Source: Candidatus Hermodarchaeota archaeon
GTDB taxonomy: Archaea; Asgardarchaeota; Lokiarchaeia; Sigyniarchaeales; SOKP01
Assembly (NCBI GenBank): GCA_048885535.1
Contig: JBHLLO010000023.1
Coordinates: forward strand, 1-41,800
Reading direction: 5' to 3'
Length of the DNA stretch: 41,800 nt
A model generated the notes under the pieces. That model saw nothing but the letters and a program-made list of their open reading frames with translations, searched no databases and was not told where the DNA came from. Positions 7,834 to 26,190 of this stretch are shown one piece after another; positions within the stretch are counted from its first letter, which is position 1, and the number at the start of each line of letters is the position of its first letter. Made by a program: the position numbers and the translations under genes.

Positions 7834-8916
7834 TTAATATTTTGAAGGAGTTTTTGTTTTAATTTTGTGTTTGGGAATCTCTTTAGCTTTTCTTAATTCA
7901 TTCTCAAATTCTTTTTTCTCTTTAAGCAATCTCTCTTTATCTCTTTCTAATTTTTCTCTTTCTCTTCGAATAACACTCTTTTCATTTGTTATATTTGATT
8001 TTTCCTTTTCTAATTGCTTAATGTCATTACTTAAAACTTTGAATTTATCCTCTAATTTATGGATTTTATCTTGTAATGAGAAATAATTACTTTCTGCTTT
8101 TGGGACTTTCTTATTTAATTCATTTATTCTTGCCTCTTGCTCTTGTTTCTTACGTTCTAGATCTCTTACATTTCTTTCTACCTTATCTTTAAAATTTTCC
8201 AAATCTACTTTTTTCTTTTCAATCTCACGATTCTTATCTTTCAGATCTTTCCTTTTATAACGAATTCTTTCTTTTTCATCTTTTAATTTTTGTTTTTCAT
8301 CATGAATTCGATTTTTTTCATCAAAAATTTCTCGCTTAAAATCAGTGACTTCTTTGTCTAGGTTATCTCTCTCTCTTGTTAGGGTTTTGATTTCATTTCT
8401 TAAATCCATTAATTCACTTTCTAATTTTTCAATGGTTCTTTCTAAGGCACTTTCTCTCCTTTCCATTCCAGGTATTTTAGTTTTTATCTGCTTAATACGA
8501 TCTTCTGTTCTTTCTCTTTCTTTTCTTAAATTATTCTTTTCTCTATCTAATATATCTTTTAATTTCTGTAATTCAGCTTTCTTTTCATCTAATTCTCTTT
8601 CTTTTAACTGTAGATCATTTTTATGTTGTTTTATTTCATTTCTCATTCTTTGTAATTCATTCTGTAAGCTTCTATGTTGATTTAAAAGATCCTTAACTTC
8701 AAGCTCTTTTTCTTTTCTTTTCTTTTCAAGATCTTTTATATTTTCTTTATATCCTTCAAGTTTTTCAATAATTTTTTCCCATTCAGCTTTTTCTTTTTGT
8801 AACTTTATTGTTTCTTCTTTTATTTGTCTTAATAACTTTGCATCTGGAATGATATCTACCGTTTCTTCTGGAGTTTTTTCTTTTATTTGATATTTAGGTA
8901 TTTTATTTTCTTTCAT
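7834..8916 (-). CDS. Long K/E-rich coiled-coil protein
   Basis: About 300 aa of near-continuous heptad pattern. ATG at 8916 (after AGGGA) is preferred over TTG at 8961. No Walker A motif or TM segment. Confidence 0.8.
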   Translation of the reverse strand: MKENKIPKYQIKEKTPEETVDIIPDAKLLRQIKEETIKLQKEKAEWEKIIEKLEGYKENIKDLEKKRKEKELEVKDLLNQHRSLQNELQRMRNEIKQHKNDLQLKERELDEKKAELQKLKDILDREKNNLRKERERTEDRIKQIKTKIPGMERRESALERTIEKLESELMDLRNEIKTLTRERDNLDKEVTDFKREIFDEKNRIHDEKQKLKDEKERIRYKRKDLKDKNREIEKKKVDLENFKDKVERNVRDLERKKQEQEARINELNKKVPKAESNYFSLQDKIHKLEDKFKVLSNDIKQLEKEKSNITNEKSVIRREREKLERDKERLLKEKKEFENELRKAKEIPKHKIKTKTPSKY

Positions 8917-9114
8917 TGTATCTACATACAATCCCTTCTTATTATTAAGATATAAAAACAATATTTCTAAAGTTTTCGTACCTAAAGGACAAAATATATA
9001 TTATGTTTGTTATCCTAATTTCATTTATATAATAAGAGTATTATTATTTATATAAAATATATTGAGAATAAACTTCAAAATTATCTTAATTATTAATTAT
9101 AAGGTGATAAATCT

Positions 9115-9504
9115 ATGGATTTTGATGAAGAATTTGATGAAGAGTTTGATGAAGATTTGGATGAAGATCTAGATGAAGATATAGAAGAACCTTCTATGAA
9201 AACCCCTAGTGAAGAAGTTAAATCCAAAACTCCTACTGTAAAACCAGTTGTTGAAGGAAAAAAGATTTCAGTATTCTTTCTATCCACTATTGGTCCTGGT
9301 GAGAAAAAGCAAAAACTTTTGGTTTATACAGGGAACAAAGTAGGAGATATTAAGAAAACCGTTGCGAATTTATTTGGTTTAGACCCTGCAGATTTTCATT
9401 TATCTTCTGGTGGAGTCACTATGGAAGAGGACACCGCATTAAGTGAATATCATGTAGTTGAGGGAGATGATATTTTGTTGATTCCAGCAAGTACTGCCGG
9501 TTAG
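9115..9504 (+). CDS. Ubiquitin-like modifier 1 (acidic N-terminal extension; C-terminus PASTAG)
   Basis: The C-terminal ~80 aa align by eye to ubiquitin (FHLSSGGVTMEEDTALSEYHVVEGDDILLI vs [30 protein letters not shown]). It ends in Gly-stop and has GGTGA 7 nt upstream of the ATG. Confidence 0.88.
   Translation: MDFDEEFDEEFDEDLDEDLDEDIEEPSMKTPSEEVKSKTPTVKPVVEGKKISVFFLSTIGPGEKKQKLLVYTGNKVGDIKKTVANLFGLDPADFHLSSGGVTMEEDTALSEYHVVEGDDILLIPASTAG
9121..9189 (+). repeat. 12-bp coding tandem repeat (FDEE/FDED/LDED) in the Ubl1 N-terminus
   Basis: TTTGATGAAGAA, TTTGATGAAGAG, TTTGATGAAGAT, TTGGATGAAGAT, CTAGATGAAGAT, then partial ATAGAAGAA. Confidence 0.85.
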
Positions 9505-9555: not shown

Positions 9556-10350
9556 TTAATTTTTTTCTTTTCGTGTAGGAATTATAACAATCTCATCATC
9601 ATCATCTAAATTATAATCACTTATTTTCAAATTTTCCTCCAAGATTATACCTCCTGATGATATTACAAAATTACTTAAATCATAATCAAATAAAACTCCG
9701 ATCTTCTCTTTAATTTCACTAACGAAGTTAGACATTTCAACAATTATTATTTTTGTTTTTTCACCTGGTTCTATTAAGGATCTCACATAAACACGTATTT
9801 TCTCTTGCATTTCAATATTAATTTTAGGTGGAGTGAAGATAATTTGTTCTATTTCTTTGTCTTTATTTATTATCATATCTTCAATTAATTGTGTTCTTTC
9901 CCGGGGAGAAAAGTATAATAACTCTCTTAAGAAAAATATTTTATCCATTTTTGAAAGATCTAAGAGATTTATTTTCTCTAATTCTTCAGAGTTAAAAACT
10001 GAAAATATATAGTCATCCATTGTTGGTATATTTTTATATGATTCATCTGAATTTGCATATGTATCTATTAATGGCATAGCGTCAAAATAATCCTCAACAA
10101 GCTCATTTCTATATTTCTTTAACGATTTTTTTTTCGACATAAATTTAGGTTTCTTTATTTTTTTACTTGGTATAGATTCAGATTGCGTTATTATATAAAA
10201 AGTGGAAGTAGATATTACAGCAACACTACCAATGGTAAAAAATAGGTAAAATGGAAAATTATCTATTTTTAATATGAATAGGATTACATAGATTAATATA
10301 AAAGTAATGTAAAGAGTAATAATACTTAATACTCTACTTTTTCTTTTCAT
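9556..10350 (-). CDS. Two-TM membrane protein with C-terminal non-conjugatable ubiquitin-like domain
   Basis: Basic N-terminus followed by two hydrophobic helices. The C-terminal domain (VRSLIEPGEKTK...IKEKIGVLF...FVISSGGIILEENLKISDYNLDDDDEIVIIP) is homologous to the neighbouring Ubls but ends TRKEKN. Confidence 0.85.
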   Translation of the reverse strand: MKRKSRVLSIITLYITFILIYVILFILKIDNFPFYLFFTIGSVAVISTSTFYIITQSESIPSKKIKKPKFMSKKKSLKKYRNELVEDYFDAMPLIDTYANSDESYKNIPTMDDYIFSVFNSEELEKINLLDLSKMDKIFFLRELLYFSPRERTQLIEDMIINKDKEIEQIIFTPPKINIEMQEKIRVYVRSLIEPGEKTKIIIVEMSNFVSEIKEKIGVLFDYDLSNFVISSGGIILEENLKISDYNLDDDDEIVIIPTRKEKN

Positions 10351-11360: not shown

Positions 11361-11687
11361 ATGAGTTTTAAAGATGATTTTGATGAAGATTTGGAACCTG
11401 TTAAATCTAAAACACCAGTATCTAAAACCCCTGCTAAAGGAAAAAAATTGACTTTATATTTCATGTCAACCATCGGACCCGGTGAAAAGAAGGAAAAGTT
11501 AACTGTGAATGACGCTAATCAGGTAAATGATATCAAACAAACTTTAGGAAATCTATTCGGACTCGATCCTGATGAATTTCATTTATCATCTGGTGGTGTT
11601 ACCATGGATGAGGACAGTCAATTAGGAGACTATAACCTAAGTGACGGTGACGATATTCTTTTAATCCCAGCTAGTACTGCCGGGTAA
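11361..11687 (+). CDS. Ubiquitin-like modifier 2 (C-terminus PASTAG)
   Basis: Paralogue of 9115..9504 (56/82 identical over the domain, counted by hand); first gene of the E1-E2-JAMM-RING run. Confidence 0.9.
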   Translation: MSFKDDFDEDLEPVKSKTPVSKTPAKGKKLTLYFMSTIGPGEKKEKLTVNDANQVNDIKQTLGNLFGLDPDEFHLSSGGVTMDEDSQLGDYNLSDGDDILLIPASTAG

Positions 11688-11742: not shown

Positions 11743-11767
11743 CTTTTATTTAATAAAGGTGATAATA

Positions 11768-12991
11768 ATGGATAAAAAATCAGATTTTTTTGACAAAGCG
11801 TTATCAAGCGAGGAGAGAAATTTATATGATCGGCAATTTCGCCTAGAAGGATGGTCCCAGAGATTAGTAAAAAACTCGAGAATATTAATTGTAGGTGTGG
11901 GAGGATTAGGATGTGAAATTGCTAAGAACTTAGCAATGTTAGGTGTAGGTCACTTAGATCTTGTAGATTTAGATATCATTGAGTATTCTAATTTAAACAG
12001 ACAAGTTCTTTTTGCGGGGGCAAAGATCGGAACACCTAAAGCAATTGCAGCCACTAAAAAATTAATAGAAATAAATCCTAATATTAATGTTAAGGGATAC
12101 CACAGTTCGCTTGAGCGATTAGATCCCATGTTATATCAAATGGCTGATGTTGTGATTGGAGGTCTTGATTCAATGAATGCACGCTTAAATTTAAATGCAC
12201 ATTGTATAAGATTTAGAAAACCATTAGTTGATGGTGGTGTATCTGGTTATCATGGTCATATTTATACAATTTTTCCGTATCAGAATGCCTGCTATGAATG
12301 TAATCCATTACCTATAGGAGAAACTGATGAGATGGCGGCGTGTACGGTGGTTGGAATACCTCGTAAAAGAATTCATTGTGTTTTTAAAGGAGATATGGCA
12401 TTTAGAGAAAAATTCGATCGAGATCCAAATCCAAAAGACATAAATGAAATAAGGTTTATTCAAAAGGTTACCAATGAATTAGTAATTAAACACAGTTTCT
12501 TACCTGAATATACTGAAGATGATATTGTGAAAATTCTTGATAGACACGATCCAGGGATAATAACTATAAATGCAGTTATTTCTGCTTTACAATCTCATGA
12601 AGCGGTAAAGATTCTTCATTGGAATAAAGGACATAAAGGATTAGGAGAACCAATTAAAGATTATGTGATATTTAATGCAATGACAATGAAATTTTATCAC
12701 ATCGAGAAACCGAGGAACACTGAATGTTCTCAATGTGGAAGGCAAGTTAGACGTGTAGCTATAAAAATGAATTCGCAATCACCTTGCATTAAAATAATTA
12801 AAACATTACAGAAAAATGGATATAATTTGGAACCTGAGTTTGAACCCGTATTAACATTATTGGATTTTAATGATATTAAAGTAATTGACTTAGAAAAGAA
12901 TCCAATTGAAAATGGTTTAAGAAATCATGAATTTATAACGGTTGCAGGGTTTAAAGGTGGAGAAATTTATGTAACTTTAAAATTAAAATAA
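11768..12991 (+). CDS. Ubiquitin-like activating enzyme E1 (ThiF/UBA family)
   Basis: YDRQ, GVGGLG, DLDIIEYSNLNRQ, Zn motifs CYEC and CSQC, and catalytic-Cys motif ACTVVGIPRKRIHC. ATG at 11768 follows GGTGA-N5. Confidence 0.92.
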   Translation: MDKKSDFFDKALSSEERNLYDRQFRLEGWSQRLVKNSRILIVGVGGLGCEIAKNLAMLGVGHLDLVDLDIIEYSNLNRQVLFAGAKIGTPKAIAATKKLIEINPNINVKGYHSSLERLDPMLYQMADVVIGGLDSMNARLNLNAHCIRFRKPLVDGGVSGYHGHIYTIFPYQNACYECNPLPIGETDEMAACTVVGIPRKRIHCVFKGDMAFREKFDRDPNPKDINEIRFIQKVTNELVIKHSFLPEYTEDDIVKILDRHDPGIITINAVISALQSHEAVKILHWNKGHKGLGEPIKDYVIFNAMTMKFYHIEKPRNTECSQCGRQVRRVAIKMNSQSPCIKIIKTLQKNGYNLEPEFEPVLTLLDFNDIKVIDLEKNPIENGLRNHEFITVAGFKGGEIYVTLKLK

Positions 12992-13093: not shown

Positions 13094-13621
13094 ATGAGTA
13101 TAAGAAGTAGCCGTATTTCCCGAGATTTTGCAGGATTAAAAAAAATGGTTAAAGAGGGGAATCTTGTTCAGTTAGTTCCATTTAACCCTAAAAAGAAAAG
13201 TATTGATCATTTAGCTTTAACAATCAAAGGTCCTAAAGGCACTGCCTATTCAGGTGGCCTTTTTAAACTGGAAATGAAATTCCCTGCTCAATATCCAAAA
13301 CAACCACCTTTCGTAAGAATTCATACTCCTATTTGGCATCCTAATTTTTGGCCAAAACCTAGTGAATACAAAGGTCAGAGAAATATTTGTCTAGCTTTAG
13401 TAGATCCCACATTAGTTGGTCAAAAGGGTGGATGGAGTCCCTCAAAAACAGCTGTTACGGTTGTTCAGGCCATAATTGCCATGTTAAACACACGTGGTAA
13501 ATATGTAAATCCAACCGACGTTTTTAATAAAAAAGCGGCTATAGAAATGATGAAAGATCCTAAATTTTTTGAAAAAAAAGTTAAAAATTTAGTTAAAAAA
13601 TATGCTAGAAGTAAATGGTGA
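13094..13621 (+). CDS. Ubiquitin-conjugating enzyme E2 (UBC fold)
   Basis: IKGPKGTAYSGGLFKL..FP.QYP..PP, TPIWHPN, ICL (catalytic Cys99), WSP and NP.D.FN..AA. Confidence 0.93.
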   Translation: MSIRSSRISRDFAGLKKMVKEGNLVQLVPFNPKKKSIDHLALTIKGPKGTAYSGGLFKLEMKFPAQYPKQPPFVRIHTPIWHPNFWPKPSEYKGQRNICLALVDPTLVGQKGGWSPSKTAVTVVQAIIAMLNTRGKYVNPTDVFNKKAAIEMMKDPKFFEKKVKNLVKKYARSKW

Positions 13622-13626
13622 TATTT

Positions 13627-14445
13627 ATGGACCCATCAAATTCGAATGAAGAATCAATTAAAGAAGAAATTAAAAAAAAAATTAAGGAGATAATTAAGAA
13701 AGAGTTATTAAATGAAATCTATGAAGAGTTAAAGTCAGAAGAAAACGAACTCGTAAACGAGATTAGCACTATGATTTCTCAAAGAGAACCCGAAAAGCAA
13801 TCGATAAAACATACTGCTAACCAAGCTTCTATTCAAGCCTCAATAACTAAAGCATCCCAAAAAGTTATTGCTGTAGATGAAATAGAAAAAGAAGTATATA
13901 TTTCAGTCAAGGCAATTCTAAAGGTAGCAAGTCATGCTCTTAAATATGCCAATTCAAAAATCCCAAGAAAGAATTGGGTAGAAGTAATAGGATTACTTGC
14001 AGGTAAATTAGACAATCACAGTAATATATTACATATTGAAGATTACTATCCTATGGGACATGGAACAGCTGTTTATGCTGAAATAAAAGATTATAAAAAT
14101 TATGCAAGGGCTTTTCGAGATATTAAAAAAGAGAAATTATTTATTTGTGGATGGGCACATAGTCATCCCTCTTATGGGTGTTTTATGAGTAATGAGGATA
14201 TTGGCACTCAATCAAGGTATCAAACGCTCTGGGATAAAGCTGTTGCCCTTGTTATTGATCCTTATCTTATTGATGGAACATCAGCAGGATTTGAGATTTA
14301 TCGTGCAAATCTGAAAACAAAGGCCTGGTATCCTTTAGTGTATGGTATTAAAGGAACATTGGATATTAAGATGCTTCCTGAAATCTTAGAATTTATGAAT
14401 CCAATCATTCAAGGAAAACCAGCATATTTAGAATATGATGAATAA
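13627..14445 (+). CDS. JAMM/MPN+ metallo-isopeptidase (Rpn11/CSN5-like)
   Basis: EVIGLL plus GWAHSHPSYGCFMSNEDIGTQ and ALVIDP; ATG at 13627 follows GGTGA-N5; ~90-aa charged helical N-terminal extension. Confidence 0.92.
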   Translation: MDPSNSNEESIKEEIKKKIKEIIKKELLNEIYEELKSEENELVNEISTMISQREPEKQSIKHTANQASIQASITKASQKVIAVDEIEKEVYISVKAILKVASHALKYANSKIPRKNWVEVIGLLAGKLDNHSNILHIEDYYPMGHGTAVYAEIKDYKNYARAFRDIKKEKLFICGWAHSHPSYGCFMSNEDIGTQSRYQTLWDKAVALVIDPYLIDGTSAGFEIYRANLKTKAWYPLVYGIKGTLDIKMLPEILEFMNPIIQGKPAYLEYDE

Positions 14446-14477
14446 TAATTTGCGTTATAATTGGTGATAATCAAACT

Positions 14478-15608
14478 GTGCTTAAAACTAAGGGTTTAGC
14501 AATAATATTTATTCTATTCTTAATAATTGGCATAATACATGGTTTTATTATCACTTTTTCATTAAATATCTTCTTTACTTGGCCGCTAATTGGCTTATGG
14601 GTTATATTTACCCTTAAAATTCTAGAAAATGTAAAACGCCATCGAGAATTTAATTCTCCTTACAATACAGCCTTTTTTGTGGTAATTCCATTGTTTATTG
14701 GCATCTTTTACTCAATTTGGGGCTATTTTACTGGTATCTTAGGTCAAAACTTAATAGAGGGTTCAAGTTTATATTTTAGTTGGTGGAGCATTATTTTTGG
14801 ATTTCCATTTGTACTATACGGATCTTATTCACTTTATCGTTGTTTTAAGAAATATAATGTAATTTATTTTGGTACAAAATCAATAAATGCGAGAAGATTA
14901 GGTTATATCTTAGCTTTCATAGTTGTTCTTTTTATTATGATATATTGGATAGCTTTTTATTCGGTTAATGTTTTTTATGATTCTCCCCTAACCCCGCTTC
15001 ATTTTTCTTTAAACCTTAATCTTTTAATATTACTTATTACAACCTTATTAATACTAATTATTTTTGGATTTGTTGGCTCGAAACAATCCTTACCAACATT
15101 AACTCGTGAATATATCACACAACGTACGAGAAGATTGAATTCATTAACTTCCCCATCTACTTTAAATTCATCTAGAAGGCGAAATACATCATCCAGACCT
15201 AATCCCTCAACTAGAACTACTACACGTACGACTATAAGAAGAACACCAACTACCGTTAGAGAAACAACTAGAACTAAGACAAAAACGAGTACTCAAACTA
15301 AAAGAGTTAAAGCTCATGATTTTTCGAGATATAAACCAAAAGCATCATATCTCTCAGTAGAAGATTTTAAATGTATTTTTTGTTTTAAATTACCAAAACT
15401 TCCTGATGATAGAGGGAGGGGGGTAGTTATCTGTCCAAAATGTAGATATCCTGCACATGCAGATGAATTTAGAGATTGGATGCAAACATCCAATCTCTGT
15501 TCAAGATGTAGTGCTCCCATTTCATCTTCATATAGAAGAAACCCTAGAATAATTAGTGTAAAGAATTATTTGATGATCTATTCACATTTTCTAAAAAAGA
15601 AAAGCTAA
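14478..15608 (+). CDS. Multi-pass membrane protein with C-terminal RING-variant finger (putative E3 ligase)
   Basis: About 6 hydrophobic helices, an S/T/R-rich linker, then C-x2-C-x16-C-x2-C-x4-H-x2-E-x3-W-x6-C-x2-C; last gene of the Ubl operon. Confidence 0.8.
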   Translation: MLKTKGLAIIFILFLIIGIIHGFIITFSLNIFFTWPLIGLWVIFTLKILENVKRHREFNSPYNTAFFVVIPLFIGIFYSIWGYFTGILGQNLIEGSSLYFSWWSIIFGFPFVLYGSYSLYRCFKKYNVIYFGTKSINARRLGYILAFIVVLFIMIYWIAFYSVNVFYDSPLTPLHFSLNLNLLILLITTLLILIIFGFVGSKQSLPTLTREYITQRTRRLNSLTSPSTLNSSRRRNTSSRPNPSTRTTTRTTIRRTPTTVRETTRTKTKTSTQTKRVKAHDFSRYKPKASYLSVEDFKCIFCFKLPKLPDDRGRGVVICPKCRYPAHADEFRDWMQTSNLCSRCSAPISSSYRRNPRIISVKNYLMIYSHFLKKKS

Positions 15609-15630: not shown

Positions 15631-16590
15631 TCAATTTAAGATTTCTAATTCTTTCTTTAAATCTCCTATGGTAGTTTTTAATTCCGCATAAACATTATGA
15701 GGATGAATTGATTCATAACTTTCTATTTTAAAGATTATTTTAAACTTTTCATCTAGATTGGGGAAATCTCTTAAAATGAAGTTTTTTGCCATTTCCCTTA
15801 TTACATCTTCTGCGAATAAAGGTTTCAGATGAGCACTTCTAACAAGTTTCGCCTCTTCTGGTCTTTTTAAAACAGATTGCATCTTTCCACTCATTGAATC
15901 TTCTATAATATCGATAATGTCTAATACATCAATTTTATGATTATTTAAATCTTTAATTTGAACTATAATAGTTCCAGTCGATCTTTGATTATGGGAACTA
16001 AAGGGCAAGATATTAAGAAGTTTTTGAATGACTTCAGGTGGGAGATTGATGTCATTTCTATTTTTGATGATCTGTTCAGCGTATTCTTGACTCATTTCTT
16101 TAGCACATGGGCAAACCGTCATTCCAACAGCACTGGCCCCAATATAATAGTTAAAGTCGATTTCTTCTTTATCATTCTTCCTAGCTTTTACATAGGAAAT
16201 TATATCATAAGCTTTTTGAATTGTTCTTTGTTCGTTGTCTTTCACTTGGACAATTATTTTTCCTTCTAATTTTACCTCAACTTTCTCTGTATAAGGATGT
16301 CTTTCTAATAATTGTCGAGCAATTCTATCTCCTACAACTTCAACAGAAGGTGTAGGCTTAAATATTACTTCGTTTATAATCTCCTCAATAGTCTCTGAGG
16401 TACGGGACATATGAATACCTCTTTTATGACTAGGCAATGAAATCAATGCTGAGATTTTAGGATAAAATGAGAATTTTTTATTTTCTTGAATAATATCAAC
16501 TTTCTTTTCTACTCCTACAATTCCAACCTTATCAATAGGGATGTTTACCCTCGAAATTGAGTCTTGCAGATCTTTTTTAAATTGATTAAT
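15631..16590 (-). CDS. mptA: GTP cyclohydrolase MptA (FolE2 family), probable ATT start
   Basis: RGIHMSR, GMTVCPCA, SHNQR, LKRPEE, PLFAEDVIR and ESIHPHN. The frame stays open 48 codons beyond the TTG at 16446 and contains the conserved DLQD...IDKVGI.GV, back to ATT at 16590. Confidence 0.88.
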   Translation of the reverse strand: MNQFKKDLQDSISRVNIPIDKVGIVGVEKKVDIIQENKKFSFYPKISALISLPSHKRGIHMSRTSETIEEIINEVIFKPTPSVEVVGDRIARQLLERHPYTEKVEVKLEGKIIVQVKDNEQRTIQKAYDIISYVKARKNDKEEIDFNYYIGASAVGMTVCPCAKEMSQEYAEQIIKNRNDINLPPEVIQKLLNILPFSSHNQRSTGTIIVQIKDLNNHKIDVLDIIDIIEDSMSGKMQSVLKRPEEAKLVRSAHLKPLFAEDVIREMAKNFILRDFPNLDEKFKIIFKIESYESIHPHNVYAELKTTIGDLKKELEILN

Positions 16591-16683
16591 TTAAAATCAC
16601 CGAAATTTATTTGCTTCTACCAATTCTAATAATTAATATTTAATTAAATTATTTCTTGATAAAAAGTAAAACTTTCCTTACTT

Positions 16684-17847
16684 ATGAGTGATGAAGGTAT
16701 ATTCTGTGATTATGGTCTAATCGGTGATAATTTAGAACTTAAAAAAAATATAAAGATAAAGTTTGATGAATCTGGGAACTTAAAAGAGATTTCATATAGC
16801 AATATTGAGGACATATTAGAATTTCCAGATTATAAGTCGAACTTATTGTTAATACCTGGCTTAATTAATTCTCACATTCATATAGGAGATAGTTTTGCAA
16901 AGGAACAAGGGTTTAATAAGCCTTTAAAAGAGGTTGTTGCACCTCCTAATGGTATTAAACATCAAATGTTAAGTAAAGTTTCAAAAGAAGTAATTGTAAA
17001 GGGAATCAAGAAAGCAATAGATGAAATGGTATCAAACGGGATTACATCTTTTATTGACTTTAGGGAAGGTGGAATCCAAGGTCTTAATATATTATCTGAG
17101 ACTCTGACAACTTATTCTGATATCAATTATCTTGCTTTTGGAAGATATGTCGAAGAGGGAGAAATTAAAAAATTATTCGAAGTAGCAGAAGGAATTGGTT
17201 TACCTAGTTATGCTAACATATCTCCTGAACTTAAAGAAAAATTAATGAAATATAAAGGGGAGTTTGAAAAATTAATTGCATGTCATGTAGCTGAACTTAA
17301 AAGAGAGAATGATCTTATCAATCAAATTTTTCAGGATGGGATTATTGATATTTTTATTCATGGAACTCATTTTAGTGAAAGTGACCTAAAATTATTAAAA
17401 GAAAAGGAAAAATCCTTAATACTATGTCCGCGTTGTAATGGTTATTTTGGAGTAGGATTTCCTCCCGTTAACAAAGTATTTGAATTAAAAGTACCTGTGG
17501 CGATTGGAACAGATAATGTAATGGCTAATAGTCCCGATCTATTCGAAGAGTTGCGATATTTATATCGAATCTTGAGAATATTAAACAATAACGCATATAT
17601 ATCTGCATTAGATTTGTTGAAAATGGTTACAATTAATGCAGCAAAAATTTTTAATATTCAAAATCATGTAGGATCCATTATTAAGGGAAAGCGCGCAGAT
17701 TTTTTCATAATTGATTTAAATGATCCAAATTATTATGTATCGAATTTAGATATTGAGAGGTTCTATACTTTGATCCTAGGAAGAACTAAGACATCTAATA
17801 TTAAGAAAACATATATTAGGGGTAAACTTGTACATGAAAAATGTTAA
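16684..17847 (+). CDS. Metal-dependent amidohydrolase / deaminase
   Basis: PGLINSHIHIGD, HVAE, IHGTH, LCPR.N, GTDN and G..ADF. Confidence 0.85.
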   Translation: MSDEGIFCDYGLIGDNLELKKNIKIKFDESGNLKEISYSNIEDILEFPDYKSNLLLIPGLINSHIHIGDSFAKEQGFNKPLKEVVAPPNGIKHQMLSKVSKEVIVKGIKKAIDEMVSNGITSFIDFREGGIQGLNILSETLTTYSDINYLAFGRYVEEGEIKKLFEVAEGIGLPSYANISPELKEKLMKYKGEFEKLIACHVAELKRENDLINQIFQDGIIDIFIHGTHFSESDLKLLKEKEKSLILCPRCNGYFGVGFPPVNKVFELKVPVAIGTDNVMANSPDLFEELRYLYRILRILNNNAYISALDLLKMVTINAAKIFNIQNHVGSIIKGKRADFFIIDLNDPNYYVSNLDIERFYTLILGRTKTSNIKKTYIRGKLVHEKC

Positions 17848-18499
17848 AAAACCTTATATTATGTTAAGTACAGCAATGACGATCGATGGGAAGATTTCCT
17901 CGAAAAACGGGGATTCTGAGATATCGGATGAGGAGGATTGGAAAGAAGTTCATAAAATTAGGACTCAAGTAGATGCAATCATGGTTGGAAAAAACACGAT
18001 ACTTCGAAACAACCCTAAACTTCATATTAAATTCTATCAACATACAGGTTATTATCGTATTGTGATAGATAGTAATTTATCTATACCAATCGATTCACAA
18101 ATAATAAATTTTAAGCCAGAAATGTATCCTACTATAATATGTACTACAGAAAATGTTACCGAGGATAAGATTAACCGCTTTAGGACGAAAAATGTTAAAA
18201 TTATCAAAAGTGGAACAGGAAATCAAGTAGATATTAAATTATTAATGGAAAAATTATATAATTTTGGAATTAGATCAATTCTTTTGGAAGGAGGAGGAAA
18301 TCTAAATTGGAGCTTCCTTAAAGAAGATTTAGTGGATGAGATAAGAATATTTGTAGCGCCGTGGATTGTTGGAGGAAAAAATGCAATCTCATTCGTTGAG
18401 GGTGATGGATTCAATAAAATGATTGAAGCTCCTAGGTTTAGATTAATTAAAGTTAGACAAAGAGAGAATTATGTTATTCTAAAATATAAGAGAAAGTAA
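17834..18499 (+). CDS. 2,5-diamino-6-ribosylamino-4(3H)-pyrimidinone 5'-phosphate reductase (ArfC/Rib7, RibD C-terminal type)
   Basis: AMTIDGKI, VHKIR...DAIMVG..T...NPKL, LLEGGG.LN and VAP.IVGG; ATG at 17834. Confidence 0.88.
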   Translation: MKNVKKPYIMLSTAMTIDGKISSKNGDSEISDEEDWKEVHKIRTQVDAIMVGKNTILRNNPKLHIKFYQHTGYYRIVIDSNLSIPIDSQIINFKPEMYPTIICTTENVTEDKINRFRTKNVKIIKSGTGNQVDIKLLMEKLYNFGIRSILLEGGGNLNWSFLKEDLVDEIRIFVAPWIVGGKNAISFVEGDGFNKMIEAPRFRLIKVRQRENYVILKYKRK

Positions 18500-18500
18500 A

Positions 18501-19622
18501 ATGAGTGAAGATACAAATATCTATGAAAATTTGTCTATTCAGAAGATTAAAGAATCGGTAAAAGAGATTAAATCATCTTTACCTAAGGAGAATCGAAATA
18601 TTATTACTTTCTCAAGAAATTTCACTTTATCTTTATCTAACTATTGCCAAAATCAATGCAAATATTGTTTTTATAACTATAAGGTAGCTAAATTAAATGG
18701 TTTAAGTAACACTACCCTTCTGGAAAATGAGCAGATGATTAGCTTGGTTCAGAAAGCAGTCGAATTAAACTGCCGGGAAGCATTATTAATGTCTGGAGAA
18801 AGACCAGATAGCTTCAATGAGGTTATTGAAGAATTGAGAAATAGAAAGTATGACGATTATATACAATTCGTTATAGATATTTGCTCATATCTTCTAAATT
18901 ATAATTTGTTGCCTCACACTAATATAGGGGTACTTACATTTGGCGAATTGCAGAGATTGAAGAATTCAAATGCTAGTATGGGTCTGATGCTTGAAAGTAG
19001 TAATAAAGAACTTTTTAAGAAGGGGGCTGTCCATGAAATATCACCTGGGAAGTTACCAGAGAAAAGAATTGAACATATAAAGAATGCTGGTAAGTTGAAA
19101 ATTCCTTTTACTACTGGTTTATTGTTGGGTATTGGTGAAAGCTTCAAAGACAGAATTAATGACTTACTCTTAATAAAAAATTTACATGATAAATATGGAC
19201 ATATTCAAGAAGTTATAATACAGAATTTTGTGGAAAAAGAGGGGATTCAATATCATCCAAAGAAACCGATATCCATTAAAGAGACTTTAAAAACAGCTGG
19301 TATAGCAAAATTAATATTTGGAAATGAAATTGCGATACAAATTCCACCTAATTTAATTCAAGGGTATGAAAAAAATGCAATTGAACTGGGAATCGATGAT
19401 TTTGGAGGGATATCTCCATTTACAATTGATTATATTAATCCAGATCACCCATGGCCCCAAATTGATAAATTGAAAGCAATTTGTAACTCTTTTGGATACG
19501 AATTAAAAGAAAGGCTTCCTATTTATTCGAAATATATACAAAAATCTGAATTCTGCCCAGTAAGTATTAAAAAAATTATAGATAATATAAAGTTAGATGT
19601 TGCAAATTTACAATCAAATTAA
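18501..19622 (+). CDS. cofG: FO synthase subunit CofG (radical SAM)
   Basis: TFSRN, CQNQCKYC, EAL.MSGE, LPHTN.G, SMGLMLE, IPFTTGLL.GIGE, HIQEVIIQNF, QIPPNL and DFGGISP.T.D.INP..PWP. Confidence 0.93.
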   Translation: MSEDTNIYENLSIQKIKESVKEIKSSLPKENRNIITFSRNFTLSLSNYCQNQCKYCFYNYKVAKLNGLSNTTLLENEQMISLVQKAVELNCREALLMSGERPDSFNEVIEELRNRKYDDYIQFVIDICSYLLNYNLLPHTNIGVLTFGELQRLKNSNASMGLMLESSNKELFKKGAVHEISPGKLPEKRIEHIKNAGKLKIPFTTGLLLGIGESFKDRINDLLLIKNLHDKYGHIQEVIIQNFVEKEGIQYHPKKPISIKETLKTAGIAKLIFGNEIAIQIPPNLIQGYEKNAIELGIDDFGGISPFTIDYINPDHPWPQIDKLKAICNSFGYELKERLPIYSKYIQKSEFCPVSIKKIIDNIKLDVANLQSN

Positions 19623-20721
19623 ACCTAATATCAAATCGATATTAGAGAAAGGTCTTAATTCTGAGAGGATCTCATCACAAGAAGCTTTAGAACTTCTAAA
19701 GGTGACTGGAAAAGAGTTCATTGCACTTCAACATACGGCAGACACAATTTGTTTTCAGAAAAAGCAAAATGTTGTCACATTTGTAGTAAATCGAAACATA
19801 AATTTTACAAATATTTGTTATCAAGGATGTAAATTTTGCACATTTAGCGTTCCTATCACAAGTGAAAAAGGGTTTTTGCTAAATATTGAGGAAATAGAAG
19901 AAAAAGTTAAAGAAGCAAATAGCAATAATTGTTCTGAAGTTTGTATTCAAGGAGGTCTACATCCAAAATTACAATTCGAATATTATTTAGAAATATTAAA
20001 AGCTGTAAAAAAAATAAATCCAAAAATCCATATACATGCATTCTCCCCTCAAGAAATATATTATATGTCAAAAATATCTGGTAGTTCGATTGAAGATACT
20101 TTAAAAACATTACAAGAAAATGGATTAGATTCTATTCCTGGTACTGCAGCCGAGATTTTGGTTGACAGAATAAGAAATATCATATGTCCAAACAAGTTAA
20201 GTACTTCTAAATGGATTGAAATTATATCAACAGCACATAAATTAGGAATCCCAACAACTTCGACTATAATGTATGGACACATTGAAGATTTAGATGATAG
20301 GATCACCCATTTAGAGATTTTAAGAGATATTCAACAAAAAACTCAAGGTTTTACTGAATTTGTTCCTCTACCTTTTGTAAAAGAAAACCCTCTGTTGTCA
20401 CGACTCAGAGATTTTCCATTAAAACCAAGCTATGGAATGGCAGATTTGAAATTATTTTGTGTGGCAAGGATATATTTTAATAATTATATTGATAATATCC
20501 AATGTTCATGGGTAAAATTAGGACCAAAATTTGCACAAGTGTCTCTTAATTATGGTGTAAATGATTTTTCAGGAACTTTAATGGAAGAGAACATATCTAA
20601 GAGTGCTGGTGCTGAATTTGGAGAATATTTATCTCCTGAAGAAATCATTAAAATTATTAAAAATGCTGGTAAAATACCTGCTCAAAGAGATACATTATAT
20701 AACATTGTGAATTATTTCTAA
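19597..20721 (+). CDS. cofH: FO synthase subunit CofH (radical SAM)
   Basis: VTFVVNRNINFTNICYQGCKFC, EVCIQGG, HAFSPQE, PGTAAEIL, TIMYGH, FTEFVPLPF, NIQ.SWVKLG and GTLMEENI; follows cofG. Confidence 0.93.
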   Translation: MLQIYNQIKPNIKSILEKGLNSERISSQEALELLKVTGKEFIALQHTADTICFQKKQNVVTFVVNRNINFTNICYQGCKFCTFSVPITSEKGFLLNIEEIEEKVKEANSNNCSEVCIQGGLHPKLQFEYYLEILKAVKKINPKIHIHAFSPQEIYYMSKISGSSIEDTLKTLQENGLDSIPGTAAEILVDRIRNIICPNKLSTSKWIEIISTAHKLGIPTTSTIMYGHIEDLDDRITHLEILRDIQQKTQGFTEFVPLPFVKENPLLSRLRDFPLKPSYGMADLKLFCVARIYFNNYIDNIQCSWVKLGPKFAQVSLNYGVNDFSGTLMEENISKSAGAEFGEYLSPEEIIKIIKNAGKIPAQRDTLYNIVNYF

Positions 20722-22580
20722 ATTTCATGATCTTGTAGATAATTTAAGATATAACGCTGTGCTATTAAATCTGAACTTACTTTTCCCAAAACTTCTCCAT
20801 CCTTAACAACTGGCATTGCAGATATTTGATATTGTTCTAGTTCTCGAATAATATCTAAAATTGTGAATTCAGGCATGGCAGTAATAACTTCTTTGGTCAT
20901 AATCTGTTCAAGTGATATATCTGTTTTTCCCTCAGCTGTAGATTTCGTTATATCCCAATCAGTAACCACTCCAACAAGTTTACCTTTAGAGAGGACAGCT
21001 ATAATTCCGCTATTTTTTTCTATCATTAATACTGCTGCTTCTTGAATACTGCAATTAACATCTATAGTAGGTATTGGAATCATAATATCTTTTGCTTTTT
21101 GCTCCCTTTCTTTTGCTGTTAATCTTTGAAGGCTAATTCGCTCTGCAGCAGCACAAGGAAGCATATCTGGATTATTTGCCAATAAATCGATTAATTCAAT
21201 CATATTATGACTAATTACATCCTTTCTATAATCCTCACCAGCAACTAACCGTTTCTTAGATAGCTCTGCAAATTCTTTAGCATGATCTGATAACCATTGG
21301 TTAACTTCTGTACGATTTCCAAGAAATTTTTCAGGTATTTGAAGGTGATCAGGAGTTTTGATTAAATGTTCTTGAGCAGCAAAGATTACTCCACCAGAAT
21401 TTACTAAATAATCATTTGCAATCATAACTCCTTTTTCTCGATATACAATTTGTTCCATACGTATCCTAGCAGCTTTTCTATTTGGATCAGGAGAATATGT
21501 ATTTGCGCCTTCAACTATCACTGCCCAATTACCCATTCTTTCTACTAACATTGAAGGATTCTCTGATTGCCATACACCCAGATAATTGAATATAGGGGCT
21601 GCAGGTATCAAGCAAAAGGCATTTTCAAGTAATAAATTATTTGAATTTGTAGAGAATTTTATTGGATGTTTATAACCTTCTGGATAAATTTTATTTTGAT
21701 AGTAAGTATTAGTAACCAACCCATTTTCCTTCCATAAGTTAAATAATTCATTGACTGGCAAACCTGATTGATTATATAAGTATCCTTCTAAATCACTGAT
21801 TCCAATTATTTTGACTAATGGAATTCTCTCTTTTAATATGCGAGAAGCATGAGCACCTACGGCTCCAAAACCTTGAATCAAAACAGTCAAATTTTCTAAC
21901 TTTGGAATATCTAAGTTTACAAATTGAGGAAGAACACGTAGTCGAGGCATTATTTCTAGCAAAGTTTGTAATGCGGTCACAACTCCTCCAGCAGCTGCTC
22001 CTAGTTCATCTATACGGTTTCCGCCCATATCTGCTGGTTTTGATACTGCGCTGTCTAAACCATTTTCTATAGCAATTGTTTTCATATCAGAATCATTAGT
22101 ACCTACATCTGGTCCAGGAACATATATTTCTTTATAACGATGAATTAAATGAGCAAATCCTTTAATTATTTCTTCATGTATTTCCTGTGATAACGCTCTC
22201 TCAGCTACTATACCAGATTTACCACCCCCATACGGAAGATTAGCTGCTGCATTTTTAAGCGTCATCCCACGTGCTAAGTTATAAATATCTGAGGGCGTTA
22301 TATCTGGAAGCATTCTTATTCCTCCCATTGAAGGCGTTCCCATAGAAAGAGAATCAACTACTAAATACCCACCAATTTCTAATGAAGAGTTTTCATCCCA
22401 CATACAACTAACAAGCTTTGGACCAACTTTATCAGCAATGATTCCTAAACGTGAAAGAAGGTGTACATCTACACTACTAAATTCTAAATAACATCTTCCA
22501 TTCTCCTTTTTAAGACGAGTTTTAAGTGTTACTTCTGGAAGTCTTTCTTTTAGGAAAACGGCCATTCCTTTTGGAATCAT
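20718..22580 (-). CDS. Glu/Leu/Phe/Val dehydrogenase fused to a C-terminal CBS pair
   Basis: GGIRM, MTLKNA, GGGKSG, GPDVGT, QGFGAVG, EGAN and NSGGV; the last ~125 aa are two CBS motifs (GVVTDWDI, AMPVV). Confidence 0.88.
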   Translation of the reverse strand: MIPKGMAVFLKERLPEVTLKTRLKKENGRCYLEFSSVDVHLLSRLGIIADKVGPKLVSCMWDENSSLEIGGYLVVDSLSMGTPSMGGIRMLPDITPSDIYNLARGMTLKNAAANLPYGGGKSGIVAERALSQEIHEEIIKGFAHLIHRYKEIYVPGPDVGTNDSDMKTIAIENGLDSAVSKPADMGGNRIDELGAAAGGVVTALQTLLEIMPRLRVLPQFVNLDIPKLENLTVLIQGFGAVGAHASRILKERIPLVKIIGISDLEGYLYNQSGLPVNELFNLWKENGLVTNTYYQNKIYPEGYKHPIKFSTNSNNLLLENAFCLIPAAPIFNYLGVWQSENPSMLVERMGNWAVIVEGANTYSPDPNRKAARIRMEQIVYREKGVMIANDYLVNSGGVIFAAQEHLIKTPDHLQIPEKFLGNRTEVNQWLSDHAKEFAELSKKRLVAGEDYRKDVISHNMIELIDLLANNPDMLPCAAAERISLQRLTAKEREQKAKDIMIPIPTIDVNCSIQEAAVLMIEKNSGIIAVLSKGKLVGVVTDWDITKSTAEGKTDISLEQIMTKEVITAMPEFTILDIIRELEQYQISAMPVVKDGEVLGKVSSDLIAQRYILNYLQDHEI

Positions 22581-22740: not shown

Positions 22741-24315
22741 TTATTCATCTTGGATATAAGCCTTTCCAAAATGTAAACATGTTTCGGCTTTATGTAATTC
22801 TCTTCCAAGATAATTTAAGTGAAAAATGTTTTCAGTTAATTGAGATTGAATTATTTTTTTGCTAAGAGTCTCTGCGTTTTCCCCAATGAACGTATAAAGC
22901 AATTGATGTTGGTTTGAATAAAATATTACATATATTTTTTTAGAGTAATGATTTATATAGATTCTAAAGTATCCTTTTTCGTCAGGAATATAAGCTTGGT
23001 TTAATCCTTTTACTATTATTGCATCTTTTCTATCAATTAGTGGATTTTTTTGAGATTTTTTCTTTTTGGCTTTAAAGATTTCTATTCCTAAGTTTATTGG
23101 TGGAGTCCTTTTGCTTTTTGCTAGATAATTTAACTTAATACTCTCTTTTAATTCTTTTACTCCTCCGATCAATTTAGTGCTATGTTCAACGGTAAAAACA
23201 ATTCCAATGTCTAATTCAGTAGCAATGCTAGCTAAGAGTCCATTGATTCCCACAGAGTCAATATCCATCAACTCTACAACATTAGAAATCCCAAAGAACA
23301 TTGGTAATTCAAATTTTAAATTATTTTCTTCAGCTACTTCTTTTTTATATAGAAAATAAGTTTCTAGTGAAGGACAAATTCCAGGTGAAATAGGCGTTTC
23401 TAGTAGAGGGTCAGCAATTATTTTACTAAACCCATAGCTCTTAAGTTGATCTGTTAATTCAAATAATTTTTTCACCCTTATTTCTGGTTTTTTTGGAAAA
23501 TATGCTGCCTTAACATTCGTGGGTAAAATCACTACAGGGAGATCTTTGGGCAAATCTAAACATTCATTATAATTTCCAAAATCAAGACTAAGGATCATAT
23601 CGACTCCTTCATCTACTGCGGCAAAAATCTCCTCCTTTAACATTGAATCAATACTTATTAGAGTATCAAAATTCTTTCTGATGAGTTTGATTATTTGCTT
23701 TATTCTCTCTGGATTTGGTTTATTTGAAACACATCCTATATCGATTATATCAGCACCAGATTCAATATAATGTTTTACTTTCTTTAGTATGTTTTGATCA
23801 TCTTTCTCAGTGCAATTTACGATTTCTGCAATTATGGGAGGGGGTAAATTACGTCCTACAATTATATCTGATCTTTGTTCATTGATATAGAAAGTATGAT
23901 GAGAGATGTTATTTCTAGCAGTGTCATATTGTGCTTTTATATGTTCTTGATAGTCTTTCTCACCAGAAATCTTTATAAGTTTATTAGCGGGAATTTTATT
24001 TGATAGATTTATATCTTCTAAATTTTGTAGTATTAAGGGTAAATCGGAAGCGAATTCTGGACCTTTCCGTACTTTGACAAGATACTTTCTTTCTAAAGTA
24101 GTAGTGTCCCATTGAATAAATCCAGGAAGTAAAACTAAATCAAAATCTAATACATGGATGCTATTAAGTATTTTATCAACAATCTCTTCAGATAAAAACG
24201 CTGAGACCGTAATATGAGCCTTATAAACTTCAATTATATAATTAGTAATAGATTGAGCGATTTCTTTTATTATTGGAAAGCTATTTAAACCGGTTATAAT
24301 AAGTATTTTATGAAT
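22741..24315 (-). CDS. Dihydropteroate-synthase-like protein (archaeal TIGR00284-like, pterin-binding plus DUF4346-like tail), probable ATT start
   Basis: The ORF track shows only the last 300 aa. I translated the frame further: it is open for 224 more codons (HKILIITG, LLPG, KGP, IIAEI, GADIIDIG, ISIDS) with no ATG/GTG/TTG, back to ATT at 24315 directly after a TAA. The C-terminus has D.KGYF and YLGREL.KAE. Confidence 0.85.
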   Translation of the reverse strand: MHKILIITGLNSFPIIKEIAQSITNYIIEVYKAHITVSAFLSEEIVDKILNSIHVLDFDLVLLPGFIQWDTTTLERKYLVKVRKGPEFASDLPLILQNLEDINLSNKIPANKLIKISGEKDYQEHIKAQYDTARNNISHHTFYINEQRSDIIVGRNLPPPIIAEIVNCTEKDDQNILKKVKHYIESGADIIDIGCVSNKPNPERIKQIIKLIRKNFDTLISIDSMLKEEIFAAVDEGVDMILSLDFGNYNECLDLPKDLPVVILPTNVKAAYFPKKPEIRVKKLFELTDQLKSYGFSKIIADPLLETPISPGICPSLETYFLYKKEVAEENNLKFELPMFFGISNVVELMDIDSVGINGLLASIATELDIGIVFTVEHSTKLIGGVKELKESIKLNYLAKSKRTPPINLGIEIFKAKKKKSQKNPLIDRKDAIIVKGLNQAYIPDEKGYFRIYINHYSKKIYVIFYSNQHQLLYTFIGENAETLSKKIIQSQLTENIFHLNYLGRELHKAETCLHFGKAYIQDE

Positions 24316-25402
24316 TTAAATCACTGAATAACTTTTTTTTTTCAAATGGAATATATATATCATCTAATATTGACCCTGTTGCTTCCTTTATTTTTAAATT
24401 ATCTATTATAGGTTTAAATCTTCCTCCCAATAATCCATTTGCAATGAAAGCTGCGCCTTGTGCAGCATGTTTAGATAAATGACTGTAAGATTTCATTAAT
24501 TTTACTGGAGCAAGATCATTAAGATTTGTTATAAAATTATCTTTTAGATGTTTTAAATCAGATTGGCGCCCAGCTAAAAGAACTTCTTTTATCTTTTCCT
24601 TTCTAGAGAAAGATGAAGATATAGCGTACACAGCCTTCTTTACACTAGAGATATAAGCATTAAGGGCAATATTTGTTTGTTCATCTCTCTCTGCTAGTAA
24701 AGAGATTTCCTTTAAGCTTAAGTCTTTATACCCTGCAATGGAGGATACACCTCCCTTATAAATATTTTTTTTCTTAATTGTTTTAATTAAATAAGCTAAT
24801 TCTCCATCAAGGCTTCCACATGCTCTGAATCCCATAATATTAGAACCACCAATACCATCAATTATTTTCCCATCTTCAATTGCTAATACGGCAGTAAACC
24901 CATAACCTATCTCAACCATAATAAAATTTGTATTTTCAGGTGGGACACCAAATCTTTCCATTTGATCTCTAATTCCTGTAACTGTGGTACATAATTTATC
25001 TGCGGTTCCCATATCTATTTTATTAATTTTCCTAAATCGCGGAATAGTTGGCAAATGCTTAACTCCTGGTACAATTACTCCAGGAATTTTTTCAGCCTTG
25101 ATTAAGCGTAAAACTTCCCCTAATCCTATCAATTTATTTTTTTCTTCTCTGTCGAATTTTAATAGCGTAAAAAAGATATCCTTTTCAGTCAAATCAGATA
25201 CCTTCTTTAGTGGAAGTCCAAAACCACTCGGTGCTACCATTAAATCTATGTTTTCTACAGATTTTATGATTGAAATTACTTTTTGAGGATTTTTAATCAA
25301 CTCTTTTGTAGGAATTGATGAATCTAATATAATGTCATCTCCCTCTAAACCAAAGAAATCCCAACTAGCAGTCCCGGGATCGATTCCGATTACTCTATAC
25401 AA
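24308..25402 (-). CDS. DUF1464 family protein (ASKHA-fold, butyrate-kinase-like)
   Basis: VIGIDPGT.S.D, APSGFG.P, PGV.HLPT.P..RK.N.IDMGTADK, G.IIDG.GG, G.LDGE.AY and AA.GAA.IA.GL.GG. Confidence 0.82.
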   Translation of the reverse strand: MYRVIGIDPGTASWDFFGLEGDDIILDSSIPTKELIKNPQKVISIIKSVENIDLMVAPSGFGLPLKKVSDLTEKDIFFTLLKFDREEKNKLIGLGEVLRLIKAEKIPGVIVPGVKHLPTIPRFRKINKIDMGTADKLCTTVTGIRDQMERFGVPPENTNFIMVEIGYGFTAVLAIEDGKIIDGIGGSNIMGFRACGSLDGELAYLIKTIKKKNIYKGGVSSIAGYKDLSLKEISLLAERDEQTNIALNAYISSVKKAVYAISSSFSRKEKIKEVLLAGRQSDLKHLKDNFITNLNDLAPVKLMKSYSHLSKHAAQGAAFIANGLLGGRFKPIIDNLKIKEATGSILDDIYIPFEKKKLFSDLNS

Positions 25403-25595
25403 TGAAAATCAGATATTTTTGAAATTGACTATATATGAAAGTACAATAATTCTTTTTATATTTACTAGTTTCAATCTATGAATTATTAGTTTTAAGTCAA
25501 TGTTTTAAATTATATGAAAGGACTAATTCTTAAAATTTAATTCAAATAATATTCTAATAATTATTAATTAAAAAGATTTAATATAAATAAACAAG

Positions 25596-26138: not shown

Positions 26139-26190
26139 TTCTTTATTTTTCATATTTTTTTTAATAAATCAAATATAATTCTGAAATCTT

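Follow-up and report, generated by a model that had tools for sequence, protein, structure and literature searches.

Archaeal ubiquitin operons in which the ubiquitin ligase (E3) is a small soluble RING protein are already known, and such systems have been reconstituted. RING ligases embedded in membranes have, to our knowledge, hitherto been regarded as eukaryotic. Here we ask what a polytopic membrane protein with a C-terminal RING-like motif contributes to an operon for ubiquitin-like proteins (Ubls) in an Asgard archaeon. The stretch analyzed, referred to as the window, comprises 41,800 nucleotides (nt) from a Candidatus Hermodarchaeota archaeon of the class Lokiarchaeia (GenBank assembly GCA_048885535.1, contig JBHLLO010000023.1, positions 1 to 41,800) and has a base composition of about 30% G+C. 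The open reading frame in question lies at 14478..15608 on the + strand and encodes 376 amino acids (aa) plus a stop codon. It begins with GTG, and a Shine-Dalgarno-like word, GGTGA, can be read from the sequence letters 10 nt 5' of this start (14463..14467, +). We consider it probable that the protein is a membrane-embedded RING-type E3 ligase belonging to a Lokiarchaeial ubiquitin-like operon.

The RING-type core and its putative zinc ligands

A preliminary description of this DNA had proposed a RING-variant E3 with the motif CxxC-x16-CxxC-x4-H-x2-E-x3-W-x6-CxxC. A regular-expression search finds the motif at exactly 15372..15509 (+, residues 299–344), and alignment and modeling also place a RING-type zinc-binding core there, which further holds F301 and W334. 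In the assignment used here, C299, C302, H327 and E330 would form site I, and C319, C322, C341 and C344 would form site II. Seven of the eight Cys/His ligands of the RING definition are present, and ligand 6 is Glu330 (codon GAA, 15465..15467, +).

Conservation was read from alignment A2 (107 rows). It combines window residues 285–376 with 106 of the 122 matches that a profile search, run exhaustively over 1.84 billion cluster representatives, returned at E ≤ 1e-3. The other 16 matches were set aside: eleven N-terminal fragments that do not include the domain (P0158, P0163, P0171, P0172, P0174, P0186, P0198, P0212, P0218, P0223 and P0235), two C-terminal pieces without the first Cys pairs (P0189 and P0221) and three domains that are truncated or carry a frameshift (P0167, P0188 and P0236). 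C302, C319, C322, H327, W334, C341 and C344 occur in 107/107 rows and C299 in 106/107, the exception being a fragment. Because the ligands and Trp334 are near-invariant across these rows, the motif is not a chance occurrence. At position 330, 99 rows have Glu, seven have His and one has Ala. Asp329 was considered as a ligand instead of Glu330 and rejected; since Asp is kept in only 64/107 rows, Glu330 is the conserved carboxylate.

The alignment suggests that Glu330 ligates zinc, and in favor of this we count the near-complete invariance of the other three site-I ligands together with the exchange of Glu and His at position 330. One lineage counts against it. Represented by P0131 and by L096 (G128:C2, 8857-10149, −), the latter in one of the six regions from more distant genomes described below, it reads AHADAF.DW, with Ala at 330, and keeps its operon place and all Cys/His ligands. 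Because of this lineage, a carboxylate ligand is, as far as the alignment tells, not strictly indispensable.

The same lineage, in which the gene and its operon place are retained without Glu, lends some color to a RING-type E3 with a single structural zinc, in which site I is partly or wholly a hydrogen-bond or salt-bridge network of His327 and Glu330, half-way to a U-box or SP-RING. Site II, with its four Cys, would then be the sole zinc site; Glu is an unusual ligand for structural zinc, and U-box and RING domains are intermixed at equal Z in the VIA-align list described below. We nevertheless judge this arrangement unlikely. C299, C302 and H327 are invariant in 106–107 of 107 rows, which is hard to explain without a metal at site I, and the sister group has His in place of Glu. 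Nor is the domain a U-box, a RING-like fold without zinc ligands, since seven invariant Cys/His ligands are found here. A carboxylate at ligand 6 also has a precedent, as Asp and not as Glu: plant RING-D domains carry Asp at metal ligand (ml) 5 or 6, according to the available passages of PMC5240574. A RING-type E3 with zinc at both sites is the form of the proposal that we carry forward.

Fold and relatives of the C-terminal domain

In a full-length AlphaFold model the RING part reached a predicted local distance difference test score (pLDDT) of only 50–58. After this poor result the domain was refolded alone with AlphaFold2, with A2 as the input alignment, giving a model with a mean pLDDT of 87.2 and a predicted template modeling score of 0.75. 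This model comprises a beta-hairpin (residues 316–318/325–327), a helix (residues 328–335) and a C-terminal helix (residues 361–375), and as modeled the domain is a RING-type cross-brace fold. Comparison with 48,161 chains in VIA-align placed 3lrq_A first (Z 8.2, root-mean-square deviation (rmsd) 4.0, 75 aligned residues), followed by RING1B (Z 7.5), CHIP (7.1), TRIM21 (7.1) and Rad18 (7.0), with TRIM25 also present. The 50 listed rows, with Z from 8.2 to 5.2, are RING or U-box ligase entries or complexes throughout; rows for the spliceosome, PRC1, BRCA1-BARD1, RAG1, Roquin and cytoplasmic lattices presumably appear through the U-box or RING domains that they contain. No PHD, LIM, FYVE or zinc-ribbon title stands among these 50 rows, an absence from a list that excludes no family.

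The relationship to canonical RING domains was examined at the profile level. When the organism's own genome (3.09 Mb, 112 contigs) was compared with zf-RING_2, three matches exceeded the cut-off and four more were weaker. Its RING paralogs have the same spacing, CxxC-x12/13-CxxC-x4-H-x2-[C/H]-x3-W-x6-CxxC, with Cys (L081, L083) or His (L084) in the Glu330 column. The seven His330 rows of A2 are soluble proteins of 126–203 aa, two of them Heimdallarchaeal by name; three lie above the Pfam zf-RING_2 cut-off of 27.3 bits (28.6, 30.3 and 28.2) and four slightly below it. Divergent members of the family itself match zf-RING_2 at E 0.003–0.02. When a profile of 18 Glu-bearing domains (A4) was aligned in hhalign with one of four own-genome paralogs and the seven soluble relatives (A5), the match had a probability of 98.2% and an E of 3.3e-14 over 60 columns. 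Glu330 fell on the Cys/His column (...AHADEFRDW... on ...YHYLCVADW...), as expected if Glu occupies the sixth zinc-ligand position, which is where the preliminary description had put it. A quick maximum-likelihood tree of the 107 domains sets the His rows to one side of a single branch (Shimodaira-Hasegawa-like approximate likelihood ratio test 98), in a short run that leaves 56 of 104 forks open and whose careful counterpart is unfinished. Taken together, searches with profile models and structures point to a RING cross-brace, as had been proposed, and not to a PHD, LIM or zinc-ribbon fold.

Three of the own-genome proteins deserve a remark of their own. L081 (C25) is a long coiled-coil protein with a C4HC3 RING at its end. 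L085 (G000:C81) and L086 (G000:C6), of about 400 aa, each carry two C-terminal RING/PHD-like C4HC3 fingers, and their N-terminal regions look von Willebrand A-like by eye.

The available passages of PMC5240574 (Table 1) give ml3-x1-ml4 and ml4-x7-ml5 for RING-v, and PMC5240574 gives ml3-x2-4-ml4 and ml4-x4-5-ml5 for PHD fingers. The window RING has ml3-x2-ml4-x4-ml5, the spacing of the PHD and RING-C2 types, which is common to the Asgard paralogs. An assignment to RING-v was tried and rejected on this ground (x2/x4 here vs x1/x7), and the comparison with RINGv/C4HC3 drawn earlier does not extend to the spacing. Apart from Glu at ligand 6, the PHD spacing is matched in full: ml3-x2-ml4-x4-ml5-x2-ml6 is given for PHD fingers in the same passages. 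This spacing and the strongly basic adjoining linker are what a PHD-like or other treble-clef reader of a peptide, Ubl or nucleic acid, in place of a partner for E2, would have to build on. We give such a reader hardly any credence, in view of the absence of PHD, LIM, FYVE and zinc-ribbon entries from the 50 listed rows and the profile match to paralogs that themselves match zf-RING_2. The central helix carrying Trp also argues for RING over PHD. W334 stands four residues after ligand 6, as anticipated, and this placement is the signature of RING-H2 and RING-v (available passages of PMC5240574).

Candidate residues for E2 contact and the case against a ligase

The residue preceding ligand 2 is hydrophobic in 105/107 A2 rows (Phe in 76, Ile in 17, Val in nine and Leu in three; His in the remaining two), and Trp at ligand 6 + 4 occurs in 107/107. 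In the RING E3 srfp of Caldiarchaeum subterraneum the equivalents of these two residues, I30 and W58, are required for activity, according to the available text of PMC5654768. By analogy with srfp, and with a soluble Helarchaeial RING E3 as a second basis (available passages of 10.1101/2023.07.25.550441), the protein would bind E2 and act as a ligase. Complex predictions combining E2 (A3), RING (A2) and two zinc ions scored 0.70, 0.36 and 0.67, but a control with a replaced E2 scored 0.64, so that these scores speak neither for nor against binding.

Several observations, beside the Ala330 lineage, weigh against a ligase. A Foldseek search with the domain gave no match at E ≤ 0.001; the best had E 4.9e-3, in the same kind of list, which includes IFT-A and GATOR2 chains and the HRD1 RING. 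By the guidance that accompanies VIA-align, a Z of about 8 is no more than middling, and the weight of the fold assignment therefore rests on the uniformity of the list and on the profile match. The window protein scores below all Pfam RING models, with zf-RING_16 as its sole match (E 0.066), and a PF13639 search of its own genome does not list its domain even at E ≤ 1. Further canonical RING proteins of that genome could serve the E2. The best sequence match in the PDB is the C-terminal zinc domain of IFT144 (8bda_I, E 0.21, window 15330-15605), which has CPxCxFPAxAxxF in common with the window protein and is missing its His and Glu. Finally, at the linchpin position after ligand 8, which is Arg or Lys in many active RINGs, the basic residue is absent and Ser is found; Caldiarchaeum srfp needs R69 at this position (available text of PMC5654768). 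The family as a whole has mostly Asn, Asp or Ser here (N36, D33, S13, G9, R4 and K3 of 107), and in this it differs from its soluble His-bearing relatives, which have Lys or Arg after the last Cys. A basic linchpin residue is not present in all active RINGs.

Some of these points would equally suit an architectural domain, that is, an assembly or docking module that keeps some partner, such as the Ubl machinery, at the membrane, with the E2 acting without an E3. The RING-like domains of IFT-A and GATOR2 proteins are architectural, not catalytic, and the IFT144 match, the IFT-A and GATOR2 chains in the Foldseek list, the weak zf-RING_16 match and the missing linchpin could all be read in this way. 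We regard this role as very unlikely, however: the hydrophobic residue before ligand 2 and the Trp, on which E2 use by srfp depends, are kept in 105/107 and 107/107 rows, the gene has its fixed place after those for E2 and JAMM, and the IFT-A and GATOR2 matches are weaker than or equal to the matches to active ligases.

The protein may act as a dimer. The domain was aligned through its residue 88–92 to TRIM, Rad18, RING1B and CHIP, spanning its helix 77–91 (domain numbering). The RING and U-box domains of these proteins dimerize via flanking helices, and the modeled amphipathic helix beside the RING (15558..15602, +, residues 361–375), a candidate dimerization helix, suggests the same arrangement here.

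The membrane domain and its predicted topology

The transmembrane (TM) domain spans 14493..15077 (+) and comprises six helices according to hydropathy, positive-inside counts and the model. These are residues 6–28, 31–49, 65–87, 100–118, 141–164 and 181–200 (nt 14493-14561, 14568-14624, 14670-14738, 14775-14831, 14898-14969 and 15018-15077, all +). Kyte-Doolittle windows show five clear hydrophobic peaks in this N-terminal domain. The helix at residues 100–118 was assigned by eye, and the AlphaFold model also has a helix there, in keeping with the six or so TM helices expected at the outset. The TM helices of the full-length model have a pLDDT of 75–90.

Lys plus Arg residues number 2, 3, 6 and 39 in loops 0, 2, 4 and 6, and none occurs in loops 1, 3 and 5. 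Because of this skew, the positive-inside rule, applied here to residue counts and not through a trained topology predictor, predicts that the N and C termini, and hence the zinc domain, are cytoplasmic. The RING had been expected on this side.

Conservation within the membrane part was measured in alignment A1, which consists of 31 of 120 listed homologue rows. Mean pairwise identity is 0.81 in cytoplasmic loop 2 (14625..14669, +, residues 50–64, ENVKRHREFNSPYNT), 0.84 in cytoplasmic loop 4 (14832..14897, +, residues 119–140, LYRCFKKYNVIYFGTKSINARR), 0.835 in the RING, 0.56 in helix 1 and 0.46 in the linker. Loop 4 is the most conserved segment, and loop 2 equals the RING in conservation. Loop 4 is predicted to form a beta-hairpin, with strands at residues 128–131 and 134–137 in the full-length model. 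Because loops 2 and 4 are conserved at the level of the RING, the membrane part appears to be more than an anchor, and its conserved cytoplasmic loops are the likeliest substrate- or partner-binding part of the protein. The membrane domain itself matches no Pfam or NCBIfam family. VIA-align and Foldseek searches of solved structures with it gave nothing above noise (Foldseek best E 0.7), and a search of the ESM Atlas gave no usable match.

The basic linker

Between the last TM helix and the RING lies a basic, Ser/Thr/Arg-rich linker (15078..15362, +, residues 201–295) that is modeled as disordered, with a pLDDT of 28–40 in the full-length model. Its composition includes 23 Thr, 16 Arg, 14 Ser and 7 Lys. 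The basic, S/T/R-rich character described earlier is thus accurate, whereas the length of about 70 aa applies to the low-complexity core and the full linker has 95 aa. In 31/31 homologues the linker is 93–117 aa long, with a net charge of +14 to +26 and 4–11 Lys.

Charge and lysine content of this kind, set beside the acidic N-terminal tails of both Ubls of the locus, raise the possibility that the protein is mainly a target or receptor of the pathway: linker lysines would be modified, or the linker would bind the acidic Ubl tails, in either case marking the membrane. We find this scarcely credible as the main role, as it leaves the invariant RING core unexplained and the linker sequence is poorly conserved at 0.46 pairwise identity. 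In a RING-type E3 the same linker would serve as a tether.

Operon and genomic neighborhood

The RING gene is the last gene of a same-strand operon. The first gene encodes Ubl2 (11361..11687, +, Pfam ubiquitin E 8e-7; it ends ...STAG at the stop) and is followed by genes for an E1-like (ThiF) activating enzyme (11759..12991, +, PF00899 E 1e-58), an E2 (UQ_con; 13094..13621, +, PF00179 E 2e-25; HPN, Cys99 and the WSP loop are invariant in A3) and, directly upstream of the RING gene, a JAMM/MPN+ protease (13615..14445, +, PF01398 E 2.5e-13). The JAMM gene begins within the last 7 nt of the E2 gene, and its stop lies 32 nt ahead of the GTG start of the RING gene.

We next compared this arrangement across genomes. 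A scan of one genome per species yielded 128 relatives, of which 80 loci were kept. They had been found via the patterns [ED]DFKCIFC and ADEFKDW, which makes the presence of the motif in 80/80 loci circular and leaves gene order free of that circularity. In loci with enough flank, the same-strand upstream genes were JAMM in 74/74, E2 in 71/71, E1 in 65/65 and Ubl in 60/61. Divergent genes were retained as well, namely a winged helix-turn-helix regulator in 53/58, a membrane Ubl-domain protein in 52/55 and a second Ubl in 54/55. In six regions from more distant genomes, other classes included, JAMM was adjacent in 6/6 and E2 in 5/6, the sixth region being a contig of only 2.3 kb. The membership in the operon that had been surmised is supported: the RING gene is the invariant last gene of a Ubl-E1-E2-JAMM operon.

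Of 6133 candidates in a word-indexed search, 368 proved to be homologues at E ≤ 1e-3. Each of them is either unnamed or labeled "hypothetical" and comes from a metagenome-assembled genome (MAG) of the Promethearchaeota/Lokiarchaeota type. In a profile search of 400 Asgard genomes the family was present in 197, including 117 of the 134 genomes of the window's own family. Several other families gave weaker or partial matches and others none, absences whose meaning is limited by the incompleteness of MAGs.

A membrane-anchored protein with a ubiquitin-like domain is encoded at 9556..10350 (−). It has two N-terminal hydrophobic helices and a C-terminal ubiquitin fold (Pfam ubiquitin E 1e-7, residues 189–255) without a C-terminal Gly, an architecture that recalls Usa1/HERP. 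It may possibly be a partner of the RING protein.

Both Ubls (11361-11687 and 9115-9504) end ...STAG, with a single C-terminal Gly preceded by Ala (Ala-Gly, not Gly-Gly). The Ubl2 terminus is PASTAG* in 42/63 related loci, and the rest have 1–4 extra residues past AG, which suggests that JAMM processing would be needed in some species. A K/E-rich coiled-coil protein of 375 aa (window 7834-8961, −) stands at the cluster edge in 47/52 loci.

Elsewhere in the window we noted a cofactor gene cluster (15631-20721 and 22741-28306) with a folE2/MptA-type GTP cyclohydrolase, an amidohydrolase, RibD_C, two radical-SAM CofG/CofH-like genes, a pterin-binding DUF4346, DHNA and a GHMP kinase. At 20718-22580 (−) lies a Glu/Leu/Phe/Val dehydrogenase fused to two C-terminal CBS domains (620 aa), and at 2513-3652 (−) an FtsZ/tubulin-family GTPase (Pfam Tubulin E 6e-39, FtsZ_C E 2e-12).

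Proposed function

We propose the following mechanism for the membrane-embedded E3. The six TM helices would anchor the protein in the cytoplasmic membrane and leave its two termini on the inner side, and the basic disordered tether of about 95 residues would carry the C-terminal RING. The surface formed by Ile300/Phe301 and Trp334 would dock the operon E2 charged with Ubl, by analogy with RING E3s including Caldiarchaeum srfp. From the docked E2, Ubl would be transferred to lysines of membrane or membrane-proximal proteins, the putative substrates, with the RING perhaps working as a dimer. The neighboring JAMM protease would reverse the modification.

A wider and more speculative reading, which we think decidedly unlikely, sees in the operon a prokaryotic precursor of the system by which Hrd1-type ligases control the quality of membrane proteins. 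The six-helix domain, with its conserved cytoplasmic loops, would recognize membrane proteins or help to extract them, the Glu-variant RING would tag them with Ubl, and the protein encoded at 9556-10350 would play the role of Usa1/HERP; the Cys2-His-Glu site could be a labile, regulated switch of ligase activity that responds to pH, metal or redox state.

The point of interest here is a RING protein with six membrane passes whose gene holds the final position in a Ubl-E1-E2-JAMM operon throughout Lokiarchaeia and related Asgard classes. Its host lineage, the Asgard archaea, is a close prokaryotic relative of eukaryotes, in which membrane RING ligases run endoplasmic-reticulum-associated degradation, peroxisomal receptor recycling and surface-receptor turnover. 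The conserved Glu at a zinc-ligand position amounts to a natural experiment on how far a RING zinc site can change, and the small size of all components makes them suitable for study in vitro.

Comparison with known systems

A literature search, which did not cover the supplement of PMC5654768 or Spang et al. 2015, found no description of a polytopic membrane RING in this operon. The available passages of 10.1101/2023.07.25.550441, PMC9192718, PMC11188069, PMC12962969 and PMC13328587 likewise mention none there; in PMC9192718, the part available states that the E3 search used IPR018611 only.

The spacing is identical in the soluble C4HC3/C4H2C2 paralogs from the same genome and from Heimdallarchaeia, which share CxxC-x12-16-CxxC-x4-H-x2-X-x3-W-x6-CxxC. 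They differ in having Cys or His at X, Pro after ligand 7 and Lys or Arg after ligand 8; they also have no membrane domain and lie outside the operon. Plant RING-D resembles the window protein in that one metal ligand, ml5 or ml6, is a carboxylate residue (Asp) and the RING is complete in all other respects. To judge from the available passages of PMC5240574, it differs in three respects: the residue here is Glu and not Asp, the spacing is x2/x4 and not x1/x2, and the substitution characterizes an entire, old family, whereas in plants it is scattered over individual genes.

In overall architecture, the protein is like Hrd1/gp78 and Pex2/10/12, in which the cytosolic RING comes after an N-terminal multi-helix membrane domain. 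Structures matched by the RING part include the HRD1 RING (6f98) and a Pex complex (7t92_C, Z 5.2). In the VIA-align search with the membrane domain, Hrd1 (9z0e_C) appeared at rank 8 (Z 7.1, rmsd 5.1, 154 aligned residues), tied with unrelated helical proteins. The TM-then-RING order of Hrd1/gp78 noted in the preliminary description thus stands as architecture, but the TM domain has no significant structural match to support it. Two further differences are that the window RING forms the very end of its polypeptide, beyond a long tether, and that its ligands are of another type.

A functional parallel is srfp of Caldiarchaeum subterraneum, the RING E3 of a Ub-E1-E2-srfp-Rpn11 operon, proven in vitro according to the available text of PMC5654768. 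Both proteins are archaeal and encoded in an operon with Ubl, E1, E2 and a JAMM/Rpn11 protease, and their RING cross-braces share a hydrophobic residue ahead of ligand 2 and a helix that contains a Trp. On the published description of srfp, and not on a sequence alignment, the two are nonetheless clearly set apart: srfp is small and soluble, of the RING-H2 type (C3H2C3) and has the basic linchpin R69 (PMC5654768), whereas the window protein, at 376 aa, combines six TM helices with a basic tether of 95 aa, a C4-H-E-C2 ligand set and Ser after the last Cys.

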